A stretch of 64,000 nucleotides of DNA from an uncultured Acidimicrobiaceae bacterium (GCA_963826835.1 CAWGYK010000005.1:3410-67409), one strand, 5' to 3'; positions 25,546-46,594 are shown, counted from the first letter of the stretch. Notes: generated by a model from the sequence alone, not told the origin. Numbers and translations are program-made.

Positions 25546-26586
25546 TCAGGCCCGGCCGGGGAGCAGCAGCACGTCCCGGAGCTCGTCGGTCTCGCCCCAG
25601 TCGGCCACGAGCTCGGCCACGGACGGGTAGGGCTTCTCCACGCCGGTCGCCTTCTCCAGGACCGACGGCGTGTAGCCCAGCTTCTCGAAGTACCCGAGGT
25701 AGTCCGCCACGGTGGTGCCCGAGACGCGGCGCAGCATCTCGTCCTTGAGCTCGGTGGTGACGATGGGCCGGTCGCGCTCGATGATCCGCTTGGCGCCCCG
25801 CACCACCCGACCCTCCGCTCCTTCGACGTCCATCTTCAAGAACCCGACCGGACCCTCCACGAGGTCGTCCAGCCGGAAGGTCGCGACGACGTTGCCCGGG
25901 TGGGACAGGAGATCCCCGTCCTCGATCAGGCCGCCGTTGGAACCGACGTGGGTGGAGTAGTAGGCCCACCCCGTCGCCGTGTCCGCCGCCACCGGCAACA
26001 GCGCGACGTTCGTGATCTCGTGCAGTCGCAGCGATGACAGCAGAAGGCGGCAATTCTCGGAGTTGGGCTCCAGGGCGATGACCCGCCCCGTCGGTCCCAC
26101 CAGTCTCGACGCGAGCAGCGAGTAGTAACCGAGGTTCGCTCCGACGTCGATCACCGTCATCCCGGCGCTGCAGTACCGCTCGAACACGGCCGTCAGGTGC
26201 GACTCGTACTGGCCGGAGAGCAGCCCCGGAGTGACCGCGGCGTCGGCGGCGTCGCAGAACAGCTCCACCCCGCCCACCGTGCAACGCACGGCGTCATCCT
26301 CCGCCAGCTGCACCGAGAAGGCAGTCGGCGCGACCTGATGCTCAATCGTCCCGAGCATCCGCCGGATGGTCGACACCCGCGCCAGGTCACCTGCGGCGGC
26401 CTCGTCGACGTCAGGCCGGAGCTCGTCCGGCAGCGTCGGGTAGAGCAGGTCCACCAGTTGGTCGTAGGTGATGACGCGCGGCGGTGGCTCCGGCATCGTG
26501 CCGCCGAGCCCGTACACGAGCCGGTCGCGCAGGGGCCTCAGGGTGTTCTTGACGCCGTGCAGCCAGTTGTCGTGCGCCTCGCCCAT
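25546..26586 (-). CDS. FkbM family methyltransferase with N-terminal extension
   Basis: VIDVGANLGYYS, FLKMDVEGAEGRVV. ATG 26586 (MGEAHDNW). Confidence 0.8.
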   Translation of the reverse strand: MGEAHDNWLHGVKNTLRPLRDRLVYGLGGTMPEPPPRVITYDQLVDLLYPTLPDELRPDVDEAAAGDLARVSTIRRMLGTIEHQVAPTAFSVQLAEDDAVRCTVGGVELFCDAADAAVTPGLLSGQYESHLTAVFERYCSAGMTVIDVGANLGYYSLLASRLVGPTGRVIALEPNSENCRLLLSSLRLHEITNVALLPVAADTATGWAYYSTHVGSNGGLIEDGDLLSHPGNVVATFRLDDLVEGPVGFLKMDVEGAEGRVVRGAKRIIERDRPIVTTELKDEMLRRVSGTTVADYLGYFEKLGYTPSVLEKATGVEKPYPSVAELVADWGETDELRDVLLLPGRA

Positions 26587-26683
26587 TTCGGCCAACGGTA
26601 TCTGCAATTCGGATCCGGAGAGGCAGGGTGGAGAACACCGGGTCGGTAGTCTCTCGATGAAGCGAGTCACGGGAGGAAGCATC

Positions 26684-27160
26684 GTGTCCACCGCAGATCG
26701 GATCGCCGCCACCCGGACGGTGACGGCCACTCCAGCCGAGGTCTTCCTGATCGTCACGGACCCCGCCATGCACGTCGAGATCGACGGGTCGGGCATGCTC
26801 GAGGCGGCGCCGGGCGCACTCCGCCTGGAGGCACCCGGTGACACGTTCGAGATGGACATGGACAGGGAGGCCCTGGGTGACCGCCCCATGGGCAAGTACA
26901 AGTCGCTCAACACCGTGACGAGGATCGTCCCCGACGCACTCCTCGAGTGGAACGTCGGCTCTCGTGAGCGGGGCCCGTACGGTCACGTCTACGGCTGGGA
27001 GATTACCGCCGTGGGCCCGGGCGAGACCGAGGTCACCAACTATTGCGAATGGCCCGACATCCCGGAGGAGGCGCGTCCGTACTTCCCCATCGTCCCCCTG
27101 GCCCTGCTGGAGAAGTCGGTCGAGAACCTCGCCGCGCTCGTGTCCCGCGGACCGCGGTGA
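26684..27160 (+). CDS. SRPBCC (polyketide cyclase/dehydrase-like) family protein
   Basis: GGGAGGAAG SD then GTG 26684. IAATRTVTATPAEVFLIVTDPAMHVEIDGSG. Confidence 0.7.
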   Translation: MSTADRIAATRTVTATPAEVFLIVTDPAMHVEIDGSGMLEAAPGALRLEAPGDTFEMDMDREALGDRPMGKYKSLNTVTRIVPDALLEWNVGSRERGPYGHVYGWEITAVGPGETEVTNYCEWPDIPEEARPYFPIVPLALLEKSVENLAALVSRGPR

Positions 27161-27215: not shown

Positions 27216-27485
27216 GGGATAGGAGATAAAAGGGTCGGAACTCCTTACCACCGCCGCCGCCGCACGCGATTCGGAAAACACGCCTCGCATCCCCTTCCCC
27301 AAAGCCCCATGTGATATCCACCGCCCCGCAAGCCGGGAGGAGGGGCGTCGGCCGCCATCCCCCGCCAGCCCTCTGGCAGAGCGTCCCGGCGCCGCTCGGG
27401 AGCCGGGTCGGTCGGGGTGCTCCGTGGGCCCGGTCTTGGTGGAAGTGGTCGAGCGCGGCCCTGCCCTACCGCACCAATGGGGATA
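27216..27485 (+). repeat. Copy C1 (diverged) of a ~270-bp non-coding repeat family
   Basis: Aligns block-wise with 33177-33456 and the reverse complement of 49909-50184. Shared blocks: GGGATAGGAGATAA, TTCGGAAAACACGCCTCGC, CCCGGCGCCGCTCGGGA, TCTTGGTGGAAGTGGTCGAGC, GGCCCTGCCC..CGCACCAATGGGGATA. Confidence 0.8.
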
Positions 27486-27710
27486 GTCCTGTGAGCCACT
27501 GGAGTCCCTCTCGGTAACCGGCATTTCAGGGCGGTGTCTCGGTCAGGTCCATGAGGTGCCCAGCGCAAGGGAGCCAGTGGGCACGCCACAACAACCGACC
27601 TCCGCCGGGATGAATTGTGCAAGTGACAGGTCCGTCACACGGGATCAGGATCCAGGGAGCCGATGAGGGGCCCACCGCTGTACTCTCTATGCCTTAGCCG
27701 GAGGGACCAC

Positions 27711-32704: not shown

Positions 32705-33037
32705 CTAGGACGGGGCGTCTGGAGGCGGCTCGTGCACGGCGGCCTCCCAGACCTTGCCGGACAGGCGCACGGCCACCACTCGGGAGACGGCGATGCCCAC
32801 GGCCATGGAGGTGGCCCAGGTGAGGGCGGCGGCCCAGGTAACTCTGCGGTCCGCCGGGCCGCTCGGAGGGGGCTCGTGGCGCACCAGGCGCCAGGCCATG
32901 GTGAGCAAGCGCTGGGTCACGATGGCAGCCACGGCCACCGAGGCGGCGTTGACCACCTTCCAGCCCAAGTTCTTCTGCTCGGGGCTGGCGTTGAGGGGCT
33001 TGTGAGGCCTCCAGGTGTGGTGGTAGCGAGGCTCCAT
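32705..33037 (-). CDS. DUF4235-like small membrane-associated protein
   Basis: KVVNAASVAVAAIVTQRLLTMAWRLV...AAALTWATSMAVGIAVSRVVAVRLSGKVWE pattern. Confidence 0.55.
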   Translation of the reverse strand: MEPRYHHTWRPHKPLNASPEQKNLGWKVVNAASVAVAAIVTQRLLTMAWRLVRHEPPPSGPADRRVTWAAALTWATSMAVGIAVSRVVAVRLSGKVWEAAVHEPPPDAPS

Positions 33038-33144: not shown

Positions 33145-33169
33145 CGCCGGTGCTCGATGTCATGAGACA
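33145..33169 (+). mobile_element. Solo IS481-type terminal inverted repeat remnant
   Basis: CGCCGGTGCTCGATGTCATGAGACA matches the right end of the intact IS481 (CGTCGGTGCTCGATGTCTTGAGACA at 51475-51499), with 2 mismatches. Confidence 0.6.
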
Positions 33170-33176
33170 TCACAAC

Positions 33177-33456
33177 GGGATAGGAGATAAGGGGTCTCGA
33201 AACGCCGCACCCCCGCACCCGCGCCACCGCCCCAAATTCGAAAAACACACCTCGCCCCCCTCCCCCCAGAGTCCCCATTTTGCGCCCACCGGCCACCGCC
33301 CACCGGAGGCGGGCAGATAGGCGTCCCATCCAACGCCAGCCGTCTAGCGCATCAGCCCGGCGCCGCCCGGGAACGGGGTTCAGACGGGGCACTCCGGGGC
33401 GTGATCTTGGTGGACGAGGTCGAGCGAGGCCCTGCCCCATACCGGCACTTCGGGGC
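33177..33456 (+). repeat. Copy C2 of the ~270-bp non-coding repeat family
   Basis: Roughly 90% identical (by eye) to the reverse complement of 49909-50184. It differs by about 20 substitutions and indels of 1 and 6 nt. Confidence 0.85.
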
Positions 33457-33685
33457 GGGTCTGCGGCCCCTGGTCCGGGTTGTTGGGGCAGGGACTCAGA
33501 AGCGCCAGCCTCGACGACACGAGCGCCGAACGCCGGATATTTCCGCCTAGGACGAATCATCCATCACCTCGCGGCGCTCCTTGGCTGCATTTTGCCAGAA
33601 GGATCTCGCCAGACGTATTTGGTGCCCGGGCGGTTGGGAGTGCCCGCCACTCGAACTTTCTGGGGGTCCGCGGACACTATTAGGT

Positions 33686-34261
33686 ATGCCCACGCTCTCC
33701 GAAGATGCCGACAGCGACCTGCTGGCGATGGCTGGGAGCGAACCAGAGGCCTTCGGTGAACTGTTTAGGCGATATTCGCGCTCCGTCTATGCCTACTGCG
33801 CCCGGCGGACTGGCAACCTCGATCTTGCCGAGGATCTAACCAGCGTCGTGTTTATGGAGGCGTTCCGACGCCGACGCAAGCTGCAGCTCTCGAACGCGAG
33901 CGCACTGCCCTGGTTAATCGGTGTGGCCAACAACGTCGTTCGAAACGCTGATCGCTCGCTCCGACGTTATCGATCGGCGCTCGATCGCATTCCTGTCCCG
34001 GCGGACGGTGCGAGTTCCGAAGAGAACACGATGGAACGCCTCGGGGCACAAGAGGCACTTGCCGGCGCCCTGGAAGCGATATCGGCACTCACCCAAGGAG
34101 AACAGGACGTCGTCCTCCTCGTCCTGTGGAGCGAGTTCACGTACGCAGACACGGCAACGGTGCTCGGTATCCCGGTCGGCACCGTCCGCTCTCGTCTGGC
34201 CAGCGCCCGTGCCAAGTTCAAGGACTCTGCCCCGATCACCTCGACGACCCTGACTCAATAA
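33686..34261 (+). CDS. ECF-type RNA polymerase sigma-70 family factor
   Basis: Region 2 DLAEDLTSVVFMEAFRR. Region 4 EFTYADTATVLGIPVGTVRSRLASARAKF. Confidence 0.85.
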   Translation: MPTLSEDADSDLLAMAGSEPEAFGELFRRYSRSVYAYCARRTGNLDLAEDLTSVVFMEAFRRRRKLQLSNASALPWLIGVANNVVRNADRSLRRYRSALDRIPVPADGASSEENTMERLGAQEALAGALEAISALTQGEQDVVLLVLWSEFTYADTATVLGIPVGTVRSRLASARAKFKDSAPITSTTLTQ

Positions 34262-34275
34262 GAAAAGGAGTACTT

Positions 34276-35067
34276 ATGAACGTTCTCGACACCCCACTCG
34301 TCCCCACCCTTAGTGATTTCCGACTGTCAACTCGGCAGGAGCACCTCGTGCAGGAGATCGCGGGGCGCCGCCGAAATCGACGGAGAGGTGGCCTGGCGCT
34401 AGGCGGCGGTGCCTTCGTCGCGGGTGGCGTCACGACGGCCTTGCTCGTCCTGGCCGGTCCGGGCACCGCGAACGCGTTTGCGGCCTGGACGGCTGCGCCG
34501 ACGACGCCCGCGCCCGGCCAGGTATCGAGCGCCGAGGCGACCTGCGAAGCCGCGGCGGCCACACCGCCACCTGACAAGACGGCGGGATTGGCCACGGGAG
34601 CAACCCAAGTGTCGCTCGTCGACACTCGCGGACCCTTTACACTGGTCTTGTTCGGGGCAAACACGTCTACCACCCTCTTCTGCGTGAGCGGCCCGTCGAT
34701 CAATTCCAGCGCCCAAGCCAATTCGCAAATGACGGCAATCGGCGGCCAGCCGGTATTACCCGAGGCTGGCCAGATTGCCGTCGACCGGCTACAAGCCGAT
34801 TCTGCCAACGGCCAGGCCTACACGATCGCCGAAGGCTCGGTGGGCCCAGGCGTAACGGCCGCGACGTTGGTGCTGAGCGATGGCTCGGATGTCGTCACCA
34901 CAGCTGGCAACGGCCTCTTCCTCGCCTGGTGGCCTGGTAGTGCGGTCGTCACGTCAGCGACAGTAACCACTGCTGCAGGAACGACTACTCAGCCGATCAG
35001 CTCTTCGACACCGGATACCGGCGGTTCTGGCAACACTGTCAAGCGATCCCTCGACATCGGCCAGTGA
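34276..35067 (+). CDS. Single-pass membrane protein downstream of the ECF sigma (candidate anti-sigma/partner)
   Basis: AAAGGAG SD, starting 14 nt after the sigma stop. Short cytoplasmic N-terminus, TM segment GGLALGGGAFVAGGVTTALLVLAG, Ala/Thr-rich extracytoplasmic domain. No canonical zinc anti-sigma motif seen. Confidence 0.55.
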   Translation: MNVLDTPLVPTLSDFRLSTRQEHLVQEIAGRRRNRRRGGLALGGGAFVAGGVTTALLVLAGPGTANAFAAWTAAPTTPAPGQVSSAEATCEAAAATPPPDKTAGLATGATQVSLVDTRGPFTLVLFGANTSTTLFCVSGPSINSSAQANSQMTAIGGQPVLPEAGQIAVDRLQADSANGQAYTIAEGSVGPGVTAATLVLSDGSDVVTTAGNGLFLAWWPGSAVVTSATVTTAAGTTTQPISSSTPDTGGSGNTVKRSLDIGQ

Positions 35068-35199
35068 CAGGCGAGGTCGTTCTCTTGTCAGCCGCCCAAA
35101 CGACGGTTACCTCGCTTCAGAGTCTCCACCCCTAGGGCCGCCGGGTCGCCCCAAAGGTGCCCCCGTACGCCTGTGGTGTGGGACAGACTCGACGTGCAC

Positions 35200-35700
35200 C
35201 TATGAGGTCCGCAGCGTCGCGTCGGTCTCAAGGAGTGTTTTGAGACTGGAAAGGACAGCCGGCCAGCCTTCCGAGATGCCTTGGAGAACGGCGCTACCGG
35301 TCTCGAACCCGTCGTGGACGACCGTGAGCTTCACGGTCCCGTGCCCGACCTCCTCGATGTCAAAGGCCACCCTGGAGCGGGGTTCAGCACGCCAGACTTC
35401 GGCGGTGGCATCGTCCATGCCAACCTCGGCGGCCCACTCGGGCGTGATCGTGTGCCAGGTATAGGACAGCCGGCGATAGGGATCAGACTCGAGGATCACC
35501 TGTTCGGGGTCGCTCACGACCAGCCCGACTTCCTCATGCAACATGTCGTATGTCGAGCCCTGTTTCCAGTCCGAAATGAAGGTCTTCTCACCAGCCCTCT
35601 GATGGCGCCAGTAGCGTTTCATCAGCGAGGGGTCAGTGAGTCCCTTCCAGACCTGCTCGGGAGTCGCCTGGATGTAGATCGGGTAAGCGAAGCTCGTCAT
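35200..35700 (-). CDS. SRPBCC / Aha1-domain protein
   Basis: IYIQATPEQVWKGLTDPSLMKRYW, LTVVHDGFETGSAVLQGISEGWPAVLSSLKTLLE. Confidence 0.8.
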   Translation of the reverse strand: MTSFAYPIYIQATPEQVWKGLTDPSLMKRYWRHQRAGEKTFISDWKQGSTYDMLHEEVGLVVSDPEQVILESDPYRRLSYTWHTITPEWAAEVGMDDATAEVWRAEPRSRVAFDIEEVGHGTVKLTVVHDGFETGSAVLQGISEGWPAVLSSLKTLLETDATLRTS

Positions 35701-35871
35701 TTGGTTCTGCTCCAGTCGTCGAGTTCCTGTTGAGAAACACTGCCATGGGTCTCATGGTCCATGGCAGTGCGAGGTGGAACCTCGGGGAGGACGTAGCCCC
35801 GTCCGCCGGACTCGAGCGCGGCTGATCGGCACGAGTAGGGCAGACGTCGAATCACTAGGTATGGACCCGTA

Positions 35872-35920
35872 GTGTCGGGCCGCCTGGTCGATGATCGACT
35901 AGTCATCAGCGGCCCGACAC
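35872..35920. other. Hairpin with a perfect 12-bp stem (GTGTCGGGCCGC ... GCGGCCCGACAC) and a 25-nt loop
   Basis: Read from the sequence. It abuts the 3' side of the tRNA-like element. Confidence 0.5.
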
Positions 35921-35925
35921 CCGGG

Positions 35926-36000
35926 TGGGCGCCCCGGCCGGGAATCGAACCCGGAGCATCCGCTTAGTCAGGGCAGAGCTGTCATCCAGACCCAGGGCGC
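35926..36000 (-). other. tRNA-like element / probable tRNA pseudogene
   Basis: Canonical T arm CCGGG-TTCGATT-CCCGG and terminal CCA. A 7-bp acceptor (CGCCCTG/CGGGGCG) forms only if one extra C is tolerated. The D arm is weak and the anticodon loop has 8-9 nt around CTGACTAA. About 60% similar to the tRNA-Arg at 51506-51581. Confidence 0.35.
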
Positions 36001-36076
36001 TTGAAGGACCGTATCGAGGCGATGTGACACTTCGTCCTGATAATCTGAAGTCAGTCAGGGCAGAGCTGTTGTCGTG

Positions 36077-36102
36077 CGAAGGGGCTCCACGGAGCCCCTT
36101 CG
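36077..36102. other. Perfect GC-rich hairpin (CGAAGGGGCTCC-AC-GGAGCCCCTTCG)
   Basis: Read from the sequence. No U tract on either strand. Confidence 0.45.
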
Positions 36103-36229
36103 GCGCGTCCAGCCACAACAAATCAGAAGTCCGTGGTGTCCCCTACCGCCGGGGACGGTCACACATTTTGGGTCGGGCTAACGCACCCTCTCAGGGCGTC
36201 GAGGCGCCAGTCGCGTCAGGATGTGGGAC

Positions 36230-37563
36230 ATGGAGGACCTACCGCAAACCAGGTATGCCGCGGTTGCCGACGCGGACGTTGCGTATCAGCTCTTCGGGTC
36301 GGGTCCGGTGAAGTTGATGTACTTCTGGGGGCTGGGCACCCATGTCGAGCTGAACTGGGATACCCCGGCCGACGCCGATTTTCTTCGGCGTCTGGGTTCT
36401 ATTGGTCGGGTCGTCGCATTCGACCGGCGAGGAACGGGGGCATCAGATGGGGTGGCCCGTTCAGGTATGCCGACCTGGGAAGACTGGGCCGAGGACATTC
36501 GGGCGGTCCTAGACGCCATCGGCTGGGAGCGGGTGGCGATCGTCGCCGAGGGTGACGCGGGTCAATAGCGATTCTGTTCGCGGCGATCCATCCCGAACGG
36601 GTGAGCGCATTGTTGCTTTCGAACACCACGGCCCGAGTTTTGGCCGCCCCCGACTATCCCGCTGGCCTGGATTCCGAAGTCGCAGAGGCCGGCGTCATGG
36701 TCCTTTCCAGCCTGTGGGGCACCACGGATCTGGTTCGTCTGCTCTTTCCAAGCCTGGCCAGCGACGAGGCATCGCTCCGTTCCGTCGCCCGCTGCCAGCG
36801 CGCCTCTGCGACACCTCGGACTGCCGAAGCTCAATTTCGCTACATCATGGGTGTCGATGTTCGCAATGCGTTGTCCTTGGTTCAGGTCCCGACTCTCGTA
36901 GTTCATAACGACGACAATCAGGCTTTCCCCTTAGCTCAAGGGCGCTACCTCGCTGAACATATCCCGGGCGCCAAGATGGTCACCCTGTCGGGATCGGACA
37001 CGACAGGATCACAGGTAACCGATCAGTATCTCGACGCGATCGGCGAGTTCCTCACTGGCCAAAAGCCCGCTCCTCAACCCAACCGTGTGTTGGCAAGCGT
37101 TCTCTTCACCGACATTGTGAAATCTACGGAGACGGCGGCAGCGATGGGCGACAGTCGATGGCGCCACCTTCTCGATGTGCACGACCGGGTCGTTCGTCAA
37201 GAACTCGATCGGTTCCAAGGTCGGGAAGTCAATACCACCGGAGACGGGTTCGTCGTGGCCTTCGATGGCCCCGCCTCAGGTATCCGTTGCGGTGAGGCAA
37301 TCATTGGCGCTCTGAGTGGCCGAGGCATTGGAGTCCGAGTTGGTTTGCACACCGGCGAATGTGAACGTCGGGACGATGACCTCGCCGGTCTGGCCGTCCA
37401 CATCGCAGCAAGAGTGGCCGGCCTCGCGGAACCGAGCCAAATGTTGGTCACCTCTACCGTGAAGGATCTTGTTCTCGGCAGTGGCATCCAATTCTCCGAC
37501 GCTGGCCTCCACGACCTGAAGGGTGTGCCCGGGTCGTGGCATCTCTACCGGGCGATAATGTGA
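36230..37563 (+). pseudogene. Alpha/beta-hydrolase-class III cyclase fusion, paralog of 17241..18599, interrupted by a frameshift at 36556-36565
   Basis: Tracked ORFs 36221..36568 and 36601..37563 are two halves. Frame 1 ends ...VAIVAEGDAGQ*. Frame 3 continues GSIAILFAAIHPERVSALLLSNTTARV, which parallels GGAMAALWLAATHPERVVSLIIVNGTARV in the intact paralog. Cyclase strings: VLFTDIVKSTE, TTGDGFVVAF, VRVGLHTGECERRDDDLAGLAVHIAARV. Confidence 0.75.
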
Positions 37564-37710
37564 TCTCCGTCCCCGTACACCGGGAATGGGTGCGGCCCTT
37601 GGGCACATGGTGGGAAAACCCTCAGCTAATCGTTGGAGTTCCGTTGAGTACCGGAGCCAGCCGGATAGAGGCGGCTGTGTGGGTCGATCCATGCCTAAAA
37701 TTGCCCCACG

Positions 37711-38103
37711 ATGCGGCCCTCCCGAATCATTATCGCTGCGGTCACGGCTGCAGTTCTCGGACTGGGACTAACGGCGTTATTCAGTGCGGGTGGCGGCACA
37801 ACGCAGACCAATTCTGTGGCCACGGTGGAAGTCGGCGTAGCAAAGCCGTCCATCCAGTCAGAGATAACGGTTCCCAACGTCAGGGGAGAAACCGGGGTTC
37901 AGGCCTCCCAAGCGTTCTTCGCGCTCGGGCTCCAGGCGGTCTACGCCGCAGACATCACTCAGCCGGGAGCAAAGGCAGGCACGGTCTTGGAGCAATTGCC
38001 CGCAGCGGGGTCGAGGGTCGCCTTGGATGACACCACAATTCATCTGACGATTGCCGCATCGGGTCCCAGTAGCGTTCGATTCGTCCCTCATCGCAGGGGT
38101 TGA
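37711..38103 (+). CDS. Membrane-anchored PASTA domain protein
   Basis: Anchor IIIAAVTAAVLGLGLTALF. PASTA-like VPNVRGETGVQASQAFFALGLQAVYAADITQPGAKAGTVLEQLPAAGSRVALDDTTIHLTIA. Confidence 0.6.
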   Translation: MRPSRIIIAAVTAAVLGLGLTALFSAGGGTTQTNSVATVEVGVAKPSIQSEITVPNVRGETGVQASQAFFALGLQAVYAADITQPGAKAGTVLEQLPAAGSRVALDDTTIHLTIAASGPSSVRFVPHRRG

Positions 38104-38329
38104 CCGCCGTCGCAACGGAGACTGTCCCTGTACGCCGGAACCTGGGCGCCTATGCGAGTGCCCCCCCTAGCCCCGAACGCCGGACTGGAGACCTGGTGGT
38201 CTGACAACGGTGCGGAATGATGCTGGACTTCGCGACCCCACCGAAGGAGTGACCGTCGGGCACCCGAATCATCCCATGGGCGTAGGAATGGCTCTTGGTC
38301 TCTTGAAAGGCGATCTGTAAGTTTAGGGA

Positions 38330-39622
38330 GTGGGGCCCGGCCGCCAGTTCGCTGACGATGCCCTCGATTCCGGCGCCTCAGTCGATCGAGCGAGTCCTTC
38401 TCGGGATCCGGAAATCCCAGAGGGAGATCTCGTCCCGGCACAGAGGCGGAGGCGGCGACGAAGGCGGAGGCTCACTCGCCGGAGCAGACTCGTACGTTCG
38501 TTCATGGTGGCACCGCTTGTCGTCGTGCTGTTGTGGGCGACCATTTCGTACACGGTCTGGATGCTGCGGCCCACGAGCCTCTCATGGAGCGTGAACACGG
38601 TTGAATGGGTGCGGTATGAAGTGCCTTTCGGCATCGGCAATTGGGCCGCCGACCACGTTGAGCAGATCTACTACAGCAGCCAAGCGCCCAAGAAGGGTGG
38701 GCCGCAGTTGAAGAGTCTGCCGAAGGTGGGAGTGCCACACCCCACGGCACCGGCTGCACCTGCGACGACTGCATGGCCGCCGGCGATCACACCCGTCTTC
38801 TCCAGCCCGCTTCCCGGTGAAGGGGTCTGGCAGCCAACCGGACCATCGGTCGATGGGGGTCCACCCATACTGGTCACGACCTATCGTCCTGACCCCACCT
38901 ACCCACAGATCGTGGCCTACGTCGCCTGGTTCGACCATTCGCGGACAGAGCTCGGCTATTACCCGGGCCGCTATGAGCCGCCGAACGCGGCCGTGCGCGG
39001 ACCGGCGATGGTTCCCTACAGCCAGCGGTCTCGTCTGCTTGCGACCTTCAACGGCGGGTTTACCTATGTCGATGGCCAGAACGGGTCCGCGGACAACGGC
39101 CAAACAAACGAACCGCTAAAGGACGGCAACGCGACACTCATTGGTTATACGGATGGCCGCGTGGACATTGTGAACTGGAGCGGCGGCCCGAACCCCGGCC
39201 CCGGCGTCGCGTGGGCTCGGCAGAGCTTGGCTCCGATCGTCTGGAACAGCCAGCTGAATCCCGCTTTGAACACCGATCCCAACAGCCCCCAGTGGGGATA
39301 TACGCTCGGCGGAGTTACTCGCGTCTGGCGCACCGGTGTTGGGATCGACGCTCGAGGCAACCTCATCTACGTCGCCGCTGATTATCAGACAGTGGTCAGC
39401 ATCGCGCAGATCCTTCAGCACGCCGGAGCAGTGCGGGCCATGGAGTTCGACATCAATCCCGAATGGCATTCGCTCAACACCTACAACCCCCCCGGTCTCA
39501 ACCCGACGCAGGTGGGACCCAACCCGAATCAGTCACCCGATCGCTACCTCGTCCCCGACGACCGTGACTTCTTTGCCGTCTACCGACCGATCCCCGGTCC
39601 GGTGACTGTCCCCTTCGGGTGA
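38330..39622 (+). CDS. Phosphodiester glycosidase (DUF2233) family protein with N-terminal TM anchor
   Basis: Poly-Arg then TM segment MVAPLVVVLLWATISYTVWML. C-terminal ATFNGGF, RTGVGIDARGNLIYVAAD, AVRAMEFDINPEW. Start uncertain: GTG 38330 or ATG 38504. Confidence 0.65.
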   Translation: MGPGRQFADDALDSGASVDRASPSRDPEIPEGDLVPAQRRRRRRRRRLTRRSRLVRSFMVAPLVVVLLWATISYTVWMLRPTSLSWSVNTVEWVRYEVPFGIGNWAADHVEQIYYSSQAPKKGGPQLKSLPKVGVPHPTAPAAPATTAWPPAITPVFSSPLPGEGVWQPTGPSVDGGPPILVTTYRPDPTYPQIVAYVAWFDHSRTELGYYPGRYEPPNAAVRGPAMVPYSQRSRLLATFNGGFTYVDGQNGSADNGQTNEPLKDGNATLIGYTDGRVDIVNWSGGPNPGPGVAWARQSLAPIVWNSQLNPALNTDPNSPQWGYTLGGVTRVWRTGVGIDARGNLIYVAADYQTVVSIAQILQHAGAVRAMEFDINPEWHSLNTYNPPGLNPTQVGPNPNQSPDRYLVPDDRDFFAVYRPIPGPVTVPFG

Positions 39623-39663
39623 GGATCGGTCCGCAACTCGACCCCACCTTCACGCCGACCTAT

Positions 39664-40069
39664 CCCCGTACATTGATACTTCTCTGAGGGTCCACCGCTT
39701 GATTGCTGGTCCCAAATAGCTTCGGGAGTGCTGGCAGGTTCGGTCTGACTTGGAGTTTCGTGACGTTGCAAGACGTCGTCGACCGAGCCAACCAGCGGCA
39801 CTTTGACAGCGGCACGTCCCGTCTCCGAGTTGGGGTGATTGGCCCGGGTTGCTACCAACAACCTGGACCGCCCGTCGCTCCGATCCGGAACGGCCGTGCC
39901 ATCCCTCACACCAAAGGGAGAAGGGATGACCATGACCATCGTAGAAGCTGCGCGTGGTGTGACTGGTGGCGTCGGTACTCACCGACGTCCACGTCGCTGC
40001 CGCGCCCGATCCGCTTGGCGGGCTGCTCGGCACGGAGCGCTTTGCGACCGACTCCGCTGGCTACAAGGC
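39664..40069 (+). mobile_element. IS110-family left end fragment A: 262-nt non-coding leader plus the first ~48 transposase codons (frameshifted, truncated)
   Basis: 404/406 nt identical to the reverse complement of 46089-46494. MTMTIVEAARGVTGGVGTH, then out of frame TDVHVAAAPDPLGGLLGTERFATDSAGYKA (IS110 N-terminal GVDTH..D.HVAA signature). Confidence 0.8.
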
Positions 40070-40158
40070 CCGAACGCCGGCTCGGTGGGGCCCCTGGCGG
40101 CGACTCGAGCGACAGGCTTCCGTGATCTCAAACTGCCCCACTCCCAAGCGAGCAGACT

Positions 40159-40764
40159 GTGGCCGTGGACGAAGCGTCCGTCGATCCCAATCCGATGACC
40201 CAACTTTCCTGGTGGCTCGAGGTTGCGCGAACAGCTGGCGAGCCCATGCCCGAGGCGATGGCAGTTGCCACAGCCACGACCGAGGGGCGCCCGTCCTCGA
40301 GAATGGTGCTGCTCCGAGGCCTCGACCGCCGAGGTCTCGTCTTCTACACCGACCAGGAAAGCGACAAGGGCCGGGAGCTGAGGGCGAATCCATTCGCCGC
40401 TGCCCTCTTCCATTGGTTCCTCCCAGTGCACCGACAGGTCCGGGTGACTGGAGCAGTGGAGGAGGTCGATGACGATCAGTCGGACGCCTACTGGCAGTCG
40501 CGGCCGCCAGGGGCACGTCGTAGCGCCGTCGCCAGCCACCAGAGCAAGGTGGTCGTCACTCGAGCGGTGCTCGAACAGCGGGTGGCCGAACTGGCTGAAG
40601 CGTTTCCCGAGGAAACGGGGCCACCCCGCCCTCCTCGATGGGGCGGTTACCGGATCCGGCCTGAAGTTGTCGAATTGTGGGAGGAGGGAGCGGATCGCCT
40701 GCACGATCGGCTCCGCTACGAGGCTCAGGAGGGAAGCTGGAGGATTGAGCGGTTATCACCCTGA
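40159..40764 (+). CDS. pdxH: Pyridoxamine 5'-phosphate oxidase, probably 5'-truncated
   Basis: EPMPEAMAVATATTEGRPSSRMVLLRGLDRRGLVFYT, WQSRP, WGGYRIRPEVVELWE. Only about 12 aa precede the conserved core. The ORF opens 56 nt after the IS110 fragment. Confidence 0.75.
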   Translation: MAVDEASVDPNPMTQLSWWLEVARTAGEPMPEAMAVATATTEGRPSSRMVLLRGLDRRGLVFYTDQESDKGRELRANPFAAALFHWFLPVHRQVRVTGAVEEVDDDQSDAYWQSRPPGARRSAVASHQSKVVVTRAVLEQRVAELAEAFPEETGPPRPPRWGGYRIRPEVVELWEEGADRLHDRLRYEAQEGSWRIERLSP

Positions 40765-40915
40765 CAACCTGGGGGTAGGCACACGCATCGCGTAGTGCAG
40801 TGTCGGAGAGCGGTTCAAGCTGCCCCGTCGCCGGCTTTGTGTTGCCAGCACCTTGTTCTTGTCGAGGGGTGACGGCTAGGCGTTCCGCGGGGTGAATCTC
40901 TGAGGAACAGTCTTC

Positions 40916-41311
40916 TCACCCGAGCGCCACGGCATGGACCGGTCGCAGTGTCACGGTCACCCGTCCTTCGAGGGGCGCGTCGAAGCTTGCCAAGTCCATC
41001 CCGTAGGCACTGAGCACTTTCACCAGGGTGGTGAGTTCCGGATCGGACTCAATCGTGACGTCGCAGCGCACCTCGAGTGTTCGATAGGGATTGGCGGGGT
41101 CGATGACGAACACAGTCGCCAGGGGACGCTCCGTCAGGTTCTTCAGCTTCTGTCGGATGCCGGCGAGCGACGTTACGATCACATCGCCTTCGAGCACGAC
41201 CCACACCGCGGTGAGTTGCGGGTGGCCAGTAGGTCCAACGGTGGCCAAAGTCACCGGGATCGACCCTTCGAGCAGATCGCGATGCGATGTCGGGATGGCA
41301 ATTGAACTCAT
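40916..41311 (-). CDS. PPOX-class (pyridoxamine 5'-phosphate oxidase-like, probably F420/FMN-dependent) protein
   Basis: HRDLLEGSIPVTLATVGPTGHPQLTAVWVVLEGDVIVTS. ATG 41311. Confidence 0.7.
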   Translation of the reverse strand: MSSIAIPTSHRDLLEGSIPVTLATVGPTGHPQLTAVWVVLEGDVIVTSLAGIRQKLKNLTERPLATVFVIDPANPYRTLEVRCDVTIESDPELTTLVKVLSAYGMDLASFDAPLEGRVTVTLRPVHAVALG

Positions 41312-41530
41312 TGAGGCAGGGTACCAACACCCACTTAACCGGCCCGCAGGTCTGCCCGCCAATCCCGGCATCGCCGGCGGGCGATCCCGGCTTGCGAGTG
41401 AATCCTGACGCATCACCGAAACAAGGCCAATCGTGCTTAGGTGTCTCCTATCGCCGGCTTTGGGCATGTCTATTCCGGCGAGCCTGGATCCGGCTTTATC
41501 ACCGAGCCTGGCCTTTGCCTTGGGTGTGCT

Positions 41531-41842
41531 TCAGGCCTGAGCCGCAGCACGGTTAAGTCCTACGAACTCAGCGACATCCCACTGGGGCTCGATCTCAACG
41601 TACTCAAGAGTTCCAAGGGCCAGGATCTCGGCGACAGTGTTCATGGCTGACCGCTGGTCGGGATACTCGATCACCGAGGTCAAGGCAATACGGCTCGGTG
41701 AGTACGTGACGGCCTTGACATCTCCGCCATTCTTGGCGATGACCGCGTAGATCGCCGCAGTCTGTGCATCGTTCTGCTCGTCGCTGAGGTTCTCCCAGGC
41801 CGATGGAACCGGCCGGGTGCGGGAAAGCTCGGTGTAACTCAT
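41531..41842 (-). CDS. Hypothetical protein (103 aa; possibly GYD-like fold)
   Basis: AAAGGAG SD then ATG 41842. MSYTELSRTRPVPSAWENLSDEQNDAQTAAIYAVIAKNGGDVKAV. Confidence 0.45.
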   Translation of the reverse strand: MSYTELSRTRPVPSAWENLSDEQNDAQTAAIYAVIAKNGGDVKAVTYSPSRIALTSVIEYPDQRSAMNTVAEILALGTLEYVEIEPQWDVAEFVGLNRAAAQA

Positions 41843-42083
41843 GAAACACTCCTTTCGTGGGTGCCATCGGAGGCACGCAACGAGCATTGCGCGAGTAGCA
41901 GGTTCTGTCCACCGCGCCAGTGAGGAGTGCACTCACGCGTTTGACAGAGTGCCGCAGTACGCCGGGACTGGGGCCTCGGTTAGCGCGGCGACTGGTGCTG
42001 CCAGATAGCTATTACTCCCCGAGAGTTGCCCGCCAAAGAGGTAGCATTCGCTGCGTCCACGAGGTGCGAAGGGGAGAAAAGAG

Positions 42084-42476
42084 ATGCCTGAGTTCCCTGC
42101 GATTACTCACGTGGCGCTAACGGTTACGAGCCTTGAACGGAGTGTGCCTTGGTACAAGGATCTGTTCGGCTCGGACCCAATCCTTGACGAGGACACAGGT
42201 CCGTTCCAGCGCGTCGCTTGGCTTACTGGCGGCACAATCGTTGGCGTAACTCAGTTCCCTGACTTGGACAGCACTGAGCCGTTCAACGAGCGGCGGCCGG
42301 GGCTCGATCATTTGGCTTTCGGCTGTGCCAACCGCGATGAGTTAAAGGCATGGGAAATCCGTCTGAACGAACTCGGCATCCCCAACGGGGGCATCGTGGA
42401 CACGCCTTACTACTCGGCATTGTCGTTTCGAGATCCCGACAACATCGCACTTGAGTTCTTCGCACCCCGGGGCTGA
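42084..42476 (+). CDS. VOC (glyoxalase/bleomycin resistance/dioxygenase) family protein
   Basis: ITHVALTVTSLERSVPWYKDLFG, PGLDHLAFGC, ALSFRDPDNIALEFF. Confidence 0.8.
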   Translation: MPEFPAITHVALTVTSLERSVPWYKDLFGSDPILDEDTGPFQRVAWLTGGTIVGVTQFPDLDSTEPFNERRPGLDHLAFGCANRDELKAWEIRLNELGIPNGGIVDTPYYSALSFRDPDNIALEFFAPRG

Positions 42477-42686
42477 GGCCGGCACAGTATCCGACTGCTT
42501 ATAGACCATCCCCTAACGCATCGGGACGGTGGGGCAGCTCTGCCCGCATTCCGGGAACGGCGCCGAGTCCTCTCTAAAATCGAAGGGCATGCCACCGGAA
42601 GAGATCGAGGTTCCCGGTGGCTCGATCTCCATCGACCCGTATAAAGACGGTCGGCCATCCTGGTCTGGTCCAAGGCTCTGCTCTCC

Positions 42687-42974
42687 GTGTTTTGGCGCTC
42701 CTACTTCGCGGCCGAGCGGTTGAAGAGGGACATCGTCATCCGTGATGAGACTCGGCAATGGGTGCTCTATCGAGAGGGTCCGTATGACGGCATTACGGTC
42801 GCTCAACCATTGGAGCGCCTCCTAAGTGAAGTTCGGTCGAAAGGGCTGGATACTTTCTTGCGCACCCGCCAGGTCGCGGCCTCACAAGTTGGCCCGCTGG
42901 ATGTCCCGAGCAGGGTCGGTCTCTGGGGGCAGGTGTCGCCCTACTTGCCTGGCGCTAAGAAGGGTCACAAGTAG
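42687..42974 (+). CDS. Hypothetical ORF, weak support (may be the distal half of a frameshifted gene starting at ATG 42586)
   Basis: Open frame only, with moderate GC3. No recognisable motif. Confidence 0.2.
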   Translation: MFWRSYFAAERLKRDIVIRDETRQWVLYREGPYDGITVAQPLERLLSEVRSKGLDTFLRTRQVAASQVGPLDVPSRVGLWGQVSPYLPGAKKGHK

Positions 42975-42987
42975 CCGTCAAGGGCGC

Positions 42988-43039
42988 CCCCGTACATTGA
43001 CGCCGGACCTGGGCCCACCGTGCGAACACATAGGGGATA
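42988..43039 (+). repeat. Short motif copy c: CCCCGTACATTGA-CGCCGGACCTGGGC...CACATAGGGGATA
   Basis: The first 13 nt are identical to the first 13 nt of both IS110 fragments (39664-39676; reverse complement of 46482-46494). The 3' half resembles motif b and the 3' ends of the 270-bp repeats. Confidence 0.5.
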
Positions 43040-43131
43040 CGGAACAACCGTGAGTACGCGGCACCTGTGGCAGGTCCGGTAGGCAGCCTGCGCACCCGCC
43101 GGGCGCCAGCGGATCTCCCGGACACGCCCCT

Positions 43132-43824
43132 TCAGTGAGCTTCGACGTCAATGGACTTCGGGCGAATATCGGAAGCGAACATCGCTATGAGAACGACCAG
43201 CCACGCGCCGACGAAGATCATGCTTGCGATGACGTCGGTGGTCCAATGCACACCCAGCTCAATCCGTGAGAATGCCACAGCCGCCACTGCCAATGTCGCC
43301 AGTACCCATGCCAGGGTTCGGTAGCCCGATCTTGGGGCGATAGCCGCCACCACAAGCGCCAAGGTGGTGAACACCAGGAGGGCGACAGCAGTGTGACCCG
43401 ACGGCCACGACCAGCCATGCGCCGAGACGAGCCTGACATCCTGCGGTGGGCGGTCACGCTCGACTACGTGTTTGGCCAATGTCACGCCGCCGTTCTCCCC
43501 CGCCCAGGCGACGCCCGCCAGAACCACGGCGGCTATCGGGAGGCGCCGGCGGAGGGCCAGGACCACCAAGAGGATTCCGGTCGCCACGAGCGCGACCCAC
43601 GAACCGAGCCACGTCACAGTTTTCATCACCGCGTTGAGCGCCGGGGTCCGGTGAGCGACAACAACGGACGTTACGTGGCGGTCGAATGCGTTGACCGAGC
43701 TGGAATGCGTGACGCCCACGCCGGCCGCGATCAGGAGTCCGGTCAGGGCGACCCAGGCCAGGATGAGTACCAGGACTCGTATCGAGCGGCTGGGAGGCCG
43801 CCCGCCCTTATGTGTCGAGTCCAT
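43132..43824 (-). CDS. PAP2 superfamily phosphatase (membrane)
   Basis: KHVVERDRP (KxxxxxxRP), WPSGH, SRIELGVHWTTD. ATG 43824. Confidence 0.8.
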   Translation of the reverse strand: MDSTHKGGRPPSRSIRVLVLILAWVALTGLLIAAGVGVTHSSSVNAFDRHVTSVVVAHRTPALNAVMKTVTWLGSWVALVATGILLVVLALRRRLPIAAVVLAGVAWAGENGGVTLAKHVVERDRPPQDVRLVSAHGWSWPSGHTAVALLVFTTLALVVAAIAPRSGYRTLAWVLATLAVAAVAFSRIELGVHWTTDVIASMIFVGAWLVVLIAMFASDIRPKSIDVEAH

Positions 43825-43987
43825 GACGACGCCGGTCACTTCCGGCGGTCGACGGAGTTCGGTTCCTGCCATTCGGACGGGACCCCATCGCTGGTGTGAG
43901 CGATCAGCACCGCCCCATCCTCTCAGCGTCAGCGCCATACCGGTGATCCCAGTCGCCGCCGGGCCGGAGCTACTGATCTAGCCAGCC

Positions 43988-44302
43988 CTATTCAGAGCCC
44001 CAACCGCTGTCACGCTTCTGGTCCCGCCTCTTTTGCCGGTCCAGCTGGCGGATCTGCCGGATGCTCGCCAAATAGCCCCGTTCATGTTTGACGCTGGAAA
44101 TGTGCTCGACTTCTTCGGCGACGCCCTCTGTCTTCAGGGTTTCGAGGTTCGCCTGGAGCTTGCGGAGCTCTCGATCGCATTCCCGTTTCCGGTCATAAGC
44201 GGCAATCGTGACATTGCGGCGCTCATTCCTCTCAGGGTCGAACCGGAACCACTGCAAGATCCACCGGGTCCGACTGTCGTCGCTCGGGTCAACTTCAGCC
44301 AC
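43988..44302 (-). CDS. Hypothetical charged protein (104 aa)
   Basis: Open frame RWILQWFRFDPERNERRNVTIAAYDRKRECDRELRKLQANLETLK. No family recognised. Confidence 0.4.
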   Translation of the reverse strand: MAEVDPSDDSRTRWILQWFRFDPERNERRNVTIAAYDRKRECDRELRKLQANLETLKTEGVAEEVEHISSVKHERGYLASIRQIRQLDRQKRRDQKRDSGWGSE

Positions 44303-44370
44303 CGGTCAAGTCTGTCAAAGCCGAATACAGCGAGCTGACTGACTGCCCCCGTTCGCCGGGACGGTGGCGT

Positions 44371-44781
44371 TCAGGTCGTGATTTCACCAGTCGTCGCAGT
44401 AGGCGGGTCAGCAGGACTCGTCAGGGCAGCATCTGCGCGGTTCGCATCGCCATGGAACCGCCGGTGAATCCAAACCATCTCGCCATTCAGCTCGGTCTTT
44501 GACCAGATCCCTTTCACTGGGCCGAACCTTGTATTCCGAGGGAGGCGCCCGAGGACTTCTTTGGGAGTGGCCGTGAATTTACTCTGTCGCAGCACAACGA
44601 CGGAACGATCGGTGACCACGACATCGCGAGGCTTTCCCAGTATCAACATCAAGAGCCCTCCCCCCAGACCGACCATCCAGGGGTTTCCGGCCTGAGCAGG
44701 AAACACCTCGTGGATCGTCTCTCCTTGCTGCAAGAACGGCTCCGACCTGCTGCGGAGCTTGTCGCGTAGTGCCATGGCCAT
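44371..44781 (-). CDS. Hypothetical protein, bacterial PH-domain-like
   Basis: WMVGLGGGLLMLILGKPRDVVVTDRSVVVLRQSKF pattern. Confidence 0.45.
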   Translation of the reverse strand: MAMALRDKLRSRSEPFLQQGETIHEVFPAQAGNPWMVGLGGGLLMLILGKPRDVVVTDRSVVVLRQSKFTATPKEVLGRLPRNTRFGPVKGIWSKTELNGEMVWIHRRFHGDANRADAALTSPADPPTATTGEITT

Positions 44782-44790
44782 CCCCTTCGG

Positions 44791-45183
44791 TCACGTGGAA
44801 CATCCCTTCCCTGCAACCACCGTAATACCAGGTCCGCCGGCTGAAAATGGGAAATGCGGCCAGATCCAGAGGGAGGTCAGAGGGACGTCGCCTCCGATGG
44901 CTTCTGCAAGAACCCAAATCCTCAATTCGCAACTGCCGGGGTGCCCCCGTCCGCCGGGAGCAGGGCGCTTTCGTCCGGGGCGCTTGCGGATGCCTAACTG
45001 CCTCGACCGGCACCATGGTGCTAGTCGTCCGAACCGGGATTTCAACTCCGGGGTGAGACAATCGCTCGCCGCCGTGGGAGGGTCCGAGGCCGACAGACAC
45101 CATGGCGCGACGATACGCTCTCCGACCACGTCCTCTACAAAGCCATCGAGAGATGTGATCGCTGAATAGATCAGTTTGCCCAT
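44791..45183 (-). pseudogene. Dihydrofolate reductase-family (RibD C-terminal domain) gene, apparently decayed
   Basis: N-terminus MGKLIYSAITSLDGFVEDV is typical of the family, but the middle is Arg/Pro-rich nonsense and the product is about 50 aa too short. Confidence 0.35.
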
Positions 45184-45247
45184 GGCTGGACGCAACTCCT
45201 CGGTTTGGATCTTGGAACTCATCCTGCGACCTGAGAACCACCGACTG

Positions 45248-45300
45248 CCCCAGTACATTGCCGCCGGGAGGGTGGGACACTTCCACAATTGTGAGGGCAG
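45248..45300 (+). repeat. Short motif copy f (degenerate): CCCCAGTACATTGCCGCCGGG...
   Basis: Similarity to 42988-43039 read by eye. Weaker in the 3' half. Confidence 0.3.
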
Positions 45301-45368
45301 TCATCAGGTGCCCGAGTGGCCCTAGTTCGCGGAAGCGACACGTGCGAACGTCCCCGCGCTAGAACGAC

Positions 45369-45809
45369 TTGATGGCCTACCATCTGATGACTAACCACGA
45401 AGTGAATACCTTTCTTGCGTCTAATCCAGCTCGCCCTGGGACGCTCGCCACCACCCGAGTCGATGGGCGGCCACACGTCGCTCCAGTTTGGTTTGTGACC
45501 GACGACAACGGGGACATCGTCTTCAATACAGGCAGAGATACCGTGAAGGGTCGAAACCTCGCCCGAACGCTCTTTGCTGCTCTTTGCGTCCAAGATGATC
45601 GAGCTCCGTATTCGTTCGTAACGATCGAAGGGTCTGTAGTTCTTTCCGAAAACCTGGAAGAGGTTGGCAGGTGGGCCACAATTATCGGCGGCCGCTACAT
45701 GGGAAAGAGTCGGGCCGAAGAATTCGGCGCACGGAACGGGGTCAAGGGAGAGCTTCTCGTCCGACTCCACCCAGATCGGATCGTGTCAGCGGCAAATGTC
45801 GCAAGTTGA
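45369..45809 (+). CDS. PPOX-class (pyridoxamine 5'-phosphate oxidase-like) protein
   Basis: ARPGTLATTRVDGRPHVAPVWFVTDDNGDIVFNTGRDTVKGRNL. Confidence 0.7.
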   Translation: MMAYHLMTNHEVNTFLASNPARPGTLATTRVDGRPHVAPVWFVTDDNGDIVFNTGRDTVKGRNLARTLFAALCVQDDRAPYSFVTIEGSVVLSENLEEVGRWATIIGGRYMGKSRAEEFGARNGVKGELLVRLHPDRIVSAANVAS

Positions 45810-45869
45810 TGGATTCGGTAGCCCCGAACGCTGCCGGGTCCGGGGTCATACCGGCGGATGCTCGTCGAT

Positions 45870-46494
45870 CTAGCGTTGGGGCCATGGCCCGCAAGAATGG
45901 CCCGAGCGACGAGGACTACGACAGTGCCGCCCGCCTCAGTCTGCTCGGTCTGACCGCAGGCAAGGAAGCGGACGTGGACTCCATCATGGAGACGGCGCAG
46001 GTAGCGGGTCAGTCCCGACCCGTACGAGCCCGTGCCCTCGATGCCGACCTTGGTCACGTCGCCGAAGGACTCGAGCCAGGCCAGTAGCGCCTTGTAGCCA
46101 GCGGAGTCGGTCGCAAAGCGCTCCGTGCCGAGCAGCCCGCCAAGCGGATCGGGCGCGGCAGCGACGTGGACGTCGGTGAGTATCGACGCCACCAGTCACA
46201 CCACGCGCAGCTTCTACGATGGTCATGGTCATCGCTTCTCCCTTTGGTGTGAGGGATGGCACGGCCGTTCCGGATCGGAGCGACGGGCGGTCCAGGTTGT
46301 TGGTAGCAACCCGGGCCAATCACCCCAACTCGGAGACGGGACGTGCCGCTGTCAAAGTGCCGCTGGTTGGCTCGGTCGACGACGTCTTGCAACGTCACGA
46401 AACTCCAAGTCAGACCGAACCTGCCAGCACTCCCGAAGCTATTTGGGACCAGCAATCAAGCGGTGGACCCTCAGAGAAGTATCAATGTACGGGG
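45870..46494 (-). mobile_element. IS110-family left end fragment B: same leader, about 105 degraded transposase codons, inverted relative to fragment A
   Basis: 46089-46494 is the reverse complement of 39664-40069 with 2 mismatches. It continues LLAWLESFGDVTKVGIEGTGSYGSGLTRYLR...ARAILAG with extra frameshifts. The lower boundary is approximate. Confidence 0.75.
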
Positions 46495-46594
46495 CAACTC
46501 CGAGTCAGCCGTCGTTACCACCAGAATCGAGGGGTTCGGCGAGGTGTCGCCACCGTCTCCATTCCGCTTCGGGACCTGAATCCGATAGCCGGGT

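Follow-up and report, generated by a model that had tools for sequence, protein, structure and literature searches.

A lower-GC island beside tRNA-Arg carries three copies of a repeat

The window, meaning the whole stretch of 64,000 nucleotides analysed here from an uncultured Acidimicrobiaceae bacterium, carries housekeeping genes (MreB/C, PBP2, ClpX, trigger factor) outside an island at 27-51.5 kb, with a GC content of 58-66% inside the island versus 70-74% outside. The island contains three copies of a repeat of about 270 nt, named C1, C2 and C3, and ends at a tRNA-Arg gene:

27216-27487, plus strand: C1, nhmmer profile match with E=9e-54 (profile end 27486)
33177-33456, plus strand: C2, putative left terminal inverted repeat (TIR) of a 17-kb unit; nhmmer E=1e-66; tip GGGATAGGAGATAAG at 33177
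33177-50184, unstranded: C2..C3 cargo unit of 17,008 bp, from composition and Pfam scans
49908-50184, minus strand: C3, putative right TIR of the 17-kb unit; nhmmer E=1.8e-65; minus-strand tip GCGATAGGAG at 50184
51506-51581, minus strand: tRNA-Arg(tct), called by ARAGORN and Rfam; its 3' end defines the insertion hotspot

An earlier reading, made from the sequence alone (the sequence-only reading), had placed three copies at essentially these positions, and profile searching recovered all of them, with the last 8 nt once counted to C3 (50185-50192) now assigned to a flanking duplication. The profile hit for C3 covers 50182-49908 on the minus strand, and alignment puts its tip at 50184. C2 and C3 are inverted relative to each other and 88% identical overall, rising to 93% over a 164-nt ungapped core that the repeat finder pairs as 33262-33425 with 49942-50105, in keeping with the original estimate of roughly 90%. 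C1 is the diverged copy, as first described, at an identity to C2 and C3 (73-74%) slightly higher than the two thirds judged by eye; the repeat finder pairs its positions 27355-27408 with 33326-33379 of C2. In a three-way alignment, similarity sets in abruptly at GGGATAGGAGATAA and ends near ...CCTGCCCC.TA.CG.ACAA.GGGGATA.

The element is confined to four related genomes

Genome scans for copy number and flanks brought the total to eight full copies and one partial copy, in four related Acidimicrobiaceae genomes including that of the window, and the ordered blocks of conservation first described in the window recur in the five further full copies. Locus L020 holds two inverted copies that are 91% identical (L020a and L020b), L029 holds two that are 53% identical (L029a and L029b), and L014 holds one full copy on the same contig as L005, where only the 3' 115 nt are present. 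Pairs within a genome are more alike than pairs between genomes.

With TCTTGGTGGANGNGGTCGAGC as query, a scan covering one genome per species returned 27 loci, of which only those from two Acidimicrobiaceae MAGs, namely L014, L005 and L020, were homologous. Among the approximately 40 related contigs retrieved with the SRPBCC gene upstream of C1 as anchor, the element occurs in L029 only, whose SRPBCC gene is 93% identical. Profile searches with the whole element, its 5' part or its 3' part over 67 loci gave no further copies, scans of viral contig, plasmid and phage collections gave none, and a search of JGI metagenomes with the conserved 3' block yielded only a chance match in a coding region. 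A concatenated six-frame translation, aimed as a protein query at the spurious ORFs called over the element, had no hit among at least 8000 candidates. Copy number is very low, at 2-3 per genome within the scanned sequence, which is unusual for an active non-autonomous element.

The element has discrete ends, is non-coding and gives little sign of RNA structure

The outer boundary of the element is sharp: GATAGGAG is kept in 8/8 full copies in the alignment, and the conserved outer tip reads GGGATAGGAG. The inner boundary is likewise discrete, with L029b fused to a truncated PASTA gene whose version in the window is intact. The motif G[G/A]GATA stands as a tandem pair at the 5' end of the element and again at its 3' end. 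Conservation reaches its maximum in a subterminal block at about +195 to +255, rather than at the tip; this block is near-invariant, with 0 mismatches between C2 and C3 and 0 between L020a and L020b. Because the subterminal block and not the tip is the most conserved part, transposase binding alone is an insufficient explanation for the pattern. Nucleotides ~30-120 are strongly C-rich and G-poor and nucleotides ~180-240 are G-rich, with C/G counts in the C-rich tract reaching 19/5 and 17/2 per 30 nt, which accounts for the G-runs that had been noticed on the opposite strand. The C-rich tract and the subterminal block could be bound by the enzyme or by an accessory protein, or could act as an insulator.

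A protein-coding or pseudogene fragment is rejected; the sequence-only reading had likewise called the repeat non-coding. C2 and C3 differ by frame-breaking indels of 1, 1, 6, 1 and 1 nt, their mismatches have no period-3 bias (9/7/7), and the antisense ORFs of 162-163 aa over C1 and C2 are mutually unrelated.

The ordered conserved blocks amid drifting sequence would suit a structured ncRNA gene or a riboswitch-like leader in a small paralogous family, one of the roles proposed at the outset. A 5' hairpin whose pairs seem to change in compensation when the alignment is judged by eye (GGGGT/ACCCC, GTGGT/ACCAC and GGGC/GCCC) points the same way, and the three copies that lie directly 3' of a tRNA or tRNA-like end could draw a promoter and a processing site from it. 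Rfam searches at gathering thresholds and at E<=10 over the window, the copies and the related loci returned only tRNAs and noise, with three tRNAs as the only matches within the window and none on the copies even at E=10; in the sequence-only reading, too, the repeat had not been recognised as a known RNA family. Folding energies (MFE) relative to dinucleotide shuffles gave z-scores of -0.7 to +1.9 on both strands of 8/8 full copies, RNAalifold returned a positive covariation term (+0.94) with 1 compensatory pair among 31, and no sigma-70-type promoter or intrinsic terminator was found in or beside the copies. Together with a very narrow distribution, in which close relatives lack the element, these results leave a structured RNA with hardly any likelihood.

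Copies form inward-facing pairs around accessory genes

In all four genomes, copies stand as inverted pairs that face inward, with variable cargo of lower GC content between them (C2/C3, L020a/b, L029a/b and L014/L005). Their 5' tips point outward and their bodies inward, and they bound the island in the window, in L029 and on the L014...L005 contig. The C2..C3 unit has a GC content of ~58-66% versus 70-74% in its flanks. From Pfam scans, its cargo includes genes for an ECF sigma factor with a putative anti-sigma factor, two PNPOx proteins, glyoxalases, a methyltransferase, and AHSA1, cyclase, PASTA, NAGPA, PAP2 and DUF998 proteins, besides an IS110 pseudogene and an orphan gene. The L020 unit (3866-7411, 3,546 bp) carries an LCM methyltransferase and a beta-propeller protein.

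Pfam scans and gene lists revealed no Cas1, PolB, intact transposase or recombinase/integrase in any unit. Specifically, no Cas1 domain was detected among the unit ORFs or the main ORFs elsewhere in the window, and the units of L020 and L029, like the listed genes of related loci, contained neither Cas1 nor PolB. With no mobilising enzyme inside them, the units are non-autonomous. Nor does any copy have a linked transposase, which speaks against the repeat being an internal piece of a transposase-bearing IS, an outcome that the sequence-only reading had named as its refutation.

That reading had each copy aimed at an unrelated downstream gene at a set distance from its start codon. The distances in the window were computed correctly (225, 229 and 330 nt) and turn out not to be set, with values of ~155, 200 and 316 nt in other genomes; the apparent aim arises because the copies are the terminal inverted repeats of inward-facing pairs, and L029a faces a convergent gene. 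The same geometry bears on the proposal of a mobile promoter or 5'-leader cassette, for example one whose target genes would make up the regulon of the ECF sigma factor encoded behind C2. Co-orientation with the next gene in 7/9 copies, a conserved GGGAAC motif and blocks in the 3' half, and the position of C2 ahead of the ECF sigma gene would all be expected of such a cassette. However, there is no sigma-70-like promoter, GGGAAC (GGGAGC in C1) lacks a suitably spaced -10 element on inspection of the sequence, and the downstream genes are unrelated and lie 155-330 nt off across unconserved DNA. L029a and its convergent gene do not fit, L029b abuts a truncated gene, and TIR geometry fully accounts for the orientation, which makes a promoter cassette decidedly improbable.

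Two further observations concern the interior of the island. A perfect 406-bp inverted repeat (39664-40069 and 46089-46494) comprises the start (~100 nt) of a transposase gene of the IS110 family (DEDD), together with ~300 nt of sequence upstream of it; the gene at 46192-45219 (minus strand) appears frameshifted. The arms bracket 6 kb of cargo (PNPOx, glyoxalase, PAP2), and the absence of any difference between them implies that the event, an inverted duplication or an inversion, is very recent. A DUF4235 gene (32705-33037, minus strand) within the lower-GC island has a GC3 of 0.92 versus ~0.70-0.78 in its neighbours, which suggests a core-genome fragment trapped between two generations of inserted units.

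The island occupies a hypervariable hotspot

The interval from the SRPBCC gene to tRNA-Arg/tRNA-His is a hypervariable hotspot in this Acidimicrobiales clade (26468-27160 to 51506 in the window; ~40 loci, L029-L064), with contents spanning 17 nt to >24 kb. L040 is empty, its 17 nt being all that separates the SRPBCC stop from the tRNA-Arg 3' end. At this position a single small gene is found in L031, other small inserts in L030 and L032, a prophage-like island in L050-L053, and an ECF sigma gene with two IS481 transposases in L064. C1 marks the left island edge, 55 nt past the SRPBCC gene stop, and is orthologous to the L014 copy. A candidate tRNA-like flank upstream of C1 was discarded as an orthologous intergenic hairpin common to L029. 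Across the genomes, 5 copies lie directly downstream of a co-oriented gene or tRNA.

Two units are flanked by 15-bp duplications

The L020 unit is flanked by AACAAAATCCCTGGC and AACAAAGTCCCTGGC, which match at 14/15 positions, sit exactly at both tips and read AACAAA[A/G]TCCCTGGC. Contig L066 is homologous to both sides of this unit and consists there of a tRNA-like sequence ending ...CTTCCGCTCC, one 15-nt spacer and then the sequence found to the right of the L020 unit, with no unit present; it represents the unoccupied site. A degenerate older TIR to the right of the L020 unit was also considered and is unsupported by profile search.

In the window, the corresponding flanks of the C2..C3 unit are the following, with TSD denoting a proposed target-site duplication:

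33149-33161, plus strand: remnant of the body of an IS481-family IS, GGTGCTCGATGTC; identical to 51479-51491 of the intact IS
33162-33176, plus strand: putative left TSD copy (~15 bp), ATGAGACATCACAAC; matches the tip of the IS481-family IS right end
50185-50199, plus strand: putative right TSD copy (~15 bp), TTGAGAACTCAAACT; 13/15 identical to the native IS tip at 51492-51506

Both flanks are copies of the last 15 nt of the IS right end, the left one leading into the IS body and the right one running on into a copy of the tRNA-Arg 3' end, GGCGCCCCCGGCAG, at 50200-50213. The intact neighbouring IS ends ...GGTGCTCGATGTC-TTGAGACATCAAACT and abuts GGCGCCCCCGGCAGG, the tRNA-Arg 3' end (51479-51520). 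The duplication in the window is imperfect, the left and right copies matching at 12/15 positions with one indel. Continuation into the IS body on the left and into the tRNA on the right is what a 15-bp stagger at the junction between IS tip and tRNA-Arg would predict; the alternative needs two independent truncations, each happening to leave exactly 15 nt.

The intact IS481-family IS itself (50214-51506; rve transposase at 50292-51437; ends TGTGTGAATCC... and ...GAGACATCAAAC(T)) sits in the tRNA-Arg(tct) 3' end, where a 14-15-bp duplication, (T)GGCGCCCCCGGCAG, rebuilds the tRNA (flanks 50200-50213 and 51507-51520). The same IS end abuts tRNA-Arg in contig L030, and the IS thus looks tRNA-Arg-specific.

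All three tRNA-proximal ends (C3, L029b and L020a) share a spacing of exactly 15 nt from the ...GC[G/T]CC of a tRNA or tRNA-like 3' end to the tip. No two of these 15-mers are related, and they are therefore duplications of whatever sequence occupies the site, not a common att core. The pairs C1/C3 (73%) and L029a/b (53%) lack a flanking duplication and have to be accounted for as mixed ends of different or older units.

These junctions also bear on whether the repeats could be the arms of a tyrosine or serine integrase island, with the flanking direct repeats as att cores and the element as arm-type binding sites. Such an origin would suit a hotspot at a tRNA 3' end, the classic integrase target, and the prophage-like island that occupies the hotspot in L050-L053; the L066 island lies between ~175-nt tRNA-like direct repeats, and G[G/A]GATA is common to both ends of the element, with two tandem occurrences at the 5' end. 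Yet the 15-nt flanks of L020, the window and L029b are unrelated at the same relative position, leaving no shared attP/attB core, integrative elements do not carry ~270-bp inverted ends, and no unit encodes an integrase. An integrase island is hence very unlikely.

The ~175-nt sequence, which ends in a T-arm and an acceptor-like 3' strand (...GCGGGTTCGAATCCCGTCTTCCGCTCC), is found at 5600-5771 and 8220-8378 of L066 and at 3680-3853 of L020. In L066 it forms the direct repeat around a 2.4-kb island; L020 has a single copy. Neither ARAGORN nor Rfam called a tRNA or tmRNA in it (best match tRNA-Sec, 14.5 bits), and it may represent the 3' portion of a tRNA-like RNA gene so far unrecognised, serving as an attachment site. 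L066 additionally contains a perfect 12-nt inverted repeat at 8581-8620, CGTCCTATCCCC and GGGGATAGGACG, with arms 16 nt apart and the tip motif GGGATAGGA in both. Elsewhere in the bacterial loci fetched, GGGATAGGA occurs only at genuine TIR tips, and one more match lies on an unrelated viral contig, L057. The 12-nt repeat may have been left by two unit ends that stood back to back and had one duplication in common; profile search detected no TIR bodies beside it.

Recombination has reworked the island

Core homology between the window and L029 (90%) extends ~50 nt into C1 and L029a and then ends, and C1 and L029a have only these first ~50 nt in common, implying that homologous exchange worked through the conserved 5' block. 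The window has the complete form of a gene for a small, membrane-anchored PASTA-domain protein (37711-38103, plus strand), of which L029 (13018-13283) retains only the C-terminal two-thirds just inside L029b: the first ~52 codons are missing because L029b joins the gene directly behind a GAGATAA-like site. The homology of this segment (92%) starts right after GGGGATTG of L029b, and its orientation is inverted between window and L029.

Such events raise the question of passive island-boundary repeats, which would never transpose and would instead provide portable homology for island exchange and inversion, perhaps doubling as Rho-type insulators. The break of window-L029 homology ~50 nt into the element indicates that a crossover fell within the conserved 5' block, the PASTA segment has changed orientation, and the greater likeness of pairs within a genome is what gene conversion would yield. 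The insulator variant draws on the 90-nt tract of low structure with C/G up to 17/2 per 30 nt and on the 5 copies just past a co-oriented gene or tRNA: behind SRPBCC or tRNA-Arg, a C-rich, G-poor, unstructured tract would perhaps stop read-through into the island. This account nevertheless fails to explain 15-bp duplications exactly at the tips of two independent units, the pair of empty and filled sites, the constant 15-nt tRNA spacing and the invariant tip. Homologous exchange is moreover compatible with transposition, so the two readings are not exclusive, and we consider purely passive repeats unlikely.

The junctions in the window would fit an order of events in which an IS481-family IS first lay against tRNA-Arg, the C2..C3 unit then entered the last 15 bp of that IS, a second IS copy entered the tRNA 3' end, and most of the first IS was finally lost by deletion. 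We take C1, a solo end, to be what survives of an older unit at this hotspot; its partner was probably lost along with most of the older IS.

The repeats are probably the ends of non-autonomous cargo units

Collectively, these findings indicate that the repeats are probably the long inverted ends (TIRs) of undescribed non-autonomous, cargo-carrying transposon-like units. Of the roles originally suggested, the non-coding end of a mobile element is the one that the data favour, through the inverted pairs, the 15-bp duplications that flank two of these pairs, an empty/filled site and a conserved tip. The units have the features by which non-autonomous TIR transposons are recognised, namely TIRs with a TSD, no transposase and presence/absence polymorphism. 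On this reading each unit consists of an inward-pointing TIR at either end of accessory genes, with the tip 5'-GGGATAGGAGATAAG outermost and transferred 3' ends ...CTCCTATCCC-3'. As the junctions show, insertion takes place directly downstream of a tRNA or tRNA-like 3' end, by a 15-bp staggered cut whose repair leaves a 15-bp direct duplication. Given that the duplication arises at the tRNA end, the tRNA-proximal tip always comes to lie 15 nt from the tRNA. The mobilising enzyme presumably acts in trans.

This account replaces a gene-aimed repeat with an assembly mechanism for a hypervariable accessory island beside tRNA-Arg in soil Acidimicrobiia, an island that carries sigma factors, cyclases, P450 and methyltransferases. 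The conserved tip and the 15-nt spacing rule, with ends of the form GGGATAGGAGATA...(N~200)...TCTTGGTGGA, provide a search key for the autonomous element.

Comparison with known systems

Several classes of element were rejected: IS200/IS605-type (PATE/omega-RNA), IS91/ISCR, an IS110 bridge-RNA end, a Tn3-type TIME, a linear-replicon telomere and oriT/clt. Depending on the class, what spoke against it was the lack of a conserved tetranucleotide in the flanks, of hairpins at or near the ends or of a linked gene, a TSD of the wrong length, or poor foldability.

The eukaryotic Mutator system of maize has a 9-bp TSD and a MURA (IS256-related) transposase and does not target tRNAs. Its non-autonomous members and Pack-MULEs resemble the units by analogy, with shared ~200-bp TIRs around unrelated cargo, mobilisation in trans and a fixed-length TSD; the likeness is one of how the elements work, and no homology is claimed. 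Among bacteria, composite MITE units (IMU, TIMEs/MICs and 439-bp MITE pairs around integrons) have their own short Tn3- or IS-derived TIRs and a 5-bp TSD. In these, too, two non-coding elements of 250-440 bp bracket cargo and the transposase is supplied in trans, but a single copy of our element has no TIR of its own and forms an end only at its outer tip, and its TSD measures 15 bp.

IS481-family elements are listed in ISfinder with direct repeats of 4-15 bp. The member at 50214-51506 shares with the units a TSD of ~15 bp, insertion at the tRNA-Arg 3' end and the same hotspot. It differs in having TGT... tips, TIRs of ~27 bp and its own rve transposase, a gene that the units lack; its tip is unrelated to the element tip GGGATAGG..., and the TSD of the element lies 15 nt further from the T-loop. 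Because this IS also duplicates 14-15 bp at tRNA-Arg, the combination of 15 bp and a tRNA is not unique to Cas1 in the lineage.

The closest casposons are those of bacterial family 3 and the tRNA-targeting members of A. boonei and M. mazei. Casposon TIRs measure 25-602 nt with a median TSD of 15, and family 3 includes an actinobacterium, Streptomyces albulus (PMC4046053). The target of the A. boonei casposase is the 15-bp TSD segment together with the adjacent 18 bp of the T-psi-C/3' end of tRNA-Pro, giving the layout tRNA-TSD-TIR (PMC5137440), and only the five 3'-terminal residues of a casposon end are critical (PMC6614799). The units agree in their inverted, outward-tipped TIRs (C2/C3 88%, L020a/b 91%), whose ~270 nt fall within the range of 25-602 nt, and in a TSD of ~15 bp (14/15 in L020, the IS-tip copies in the window, the empty site in L066). 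The TSD segment again lies beside the T-arm/3' end of a tRNA (C3, L029b, L020a) in the layout tRNA-TSD-TIR, and one site is reused to build islands of diverse accessory cargo (PMC4046053, PMC5137440, PMC4779613).

In contrast to casposons, the units have no cas1, polB or HNH gene inside or nearby, their TIRs have no detectable homology to published casposon TIRs beyond short purine-rich motifs, and their TSD lies wholly downstream of the tRNA versus a 5-bp overlap. The TIR tips described for bacterial casposons are rich in G and in purines (GGGGTATG..., GAGGGGGAGTAGAGAGAG..., ...GGGGATAAGGG...), which gives them no more than a loose resemblance to the element tip GGGATAGGAGATAAGGGG. With the defining genes absent, we do not class the units as casposons. 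Our literature searches turned up neither casposons from Acidimicrobiia nor non-autonomous ones.

If the repeats are transposon ends, a casposase (Cas1) is the best fit for the enzyme, an assignment we make only tentatively, and the main alternative is a DDE transposase with a 15-bp stagger, which is possible. It is conceivable, if somewhat doubtful, that the island was built by repeated insertion at one tRNA and that its units are either natural, cargo-only casposon derivatives of Actinobacteria, reduced to their ~270-bp TIRs and moved to the 15 bp behind tRNA 3' ends by a Cas1 encoded elsewhere in the genome, or the footprint of an undescribed tRNA-end-targeting integrase with a 15-bp stagger. 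Were the enzyme not a casposase, the units would point to a new tRNA-end-targeting transposase with that stagger. Were it a casposase, they would be the first natural mini-casposons and would show Cas1-type integration able to move arbitrary cargo in trans, with a bearing on the origin of CRISPR adaptation from casposons and on Cas1-based insertion tools.
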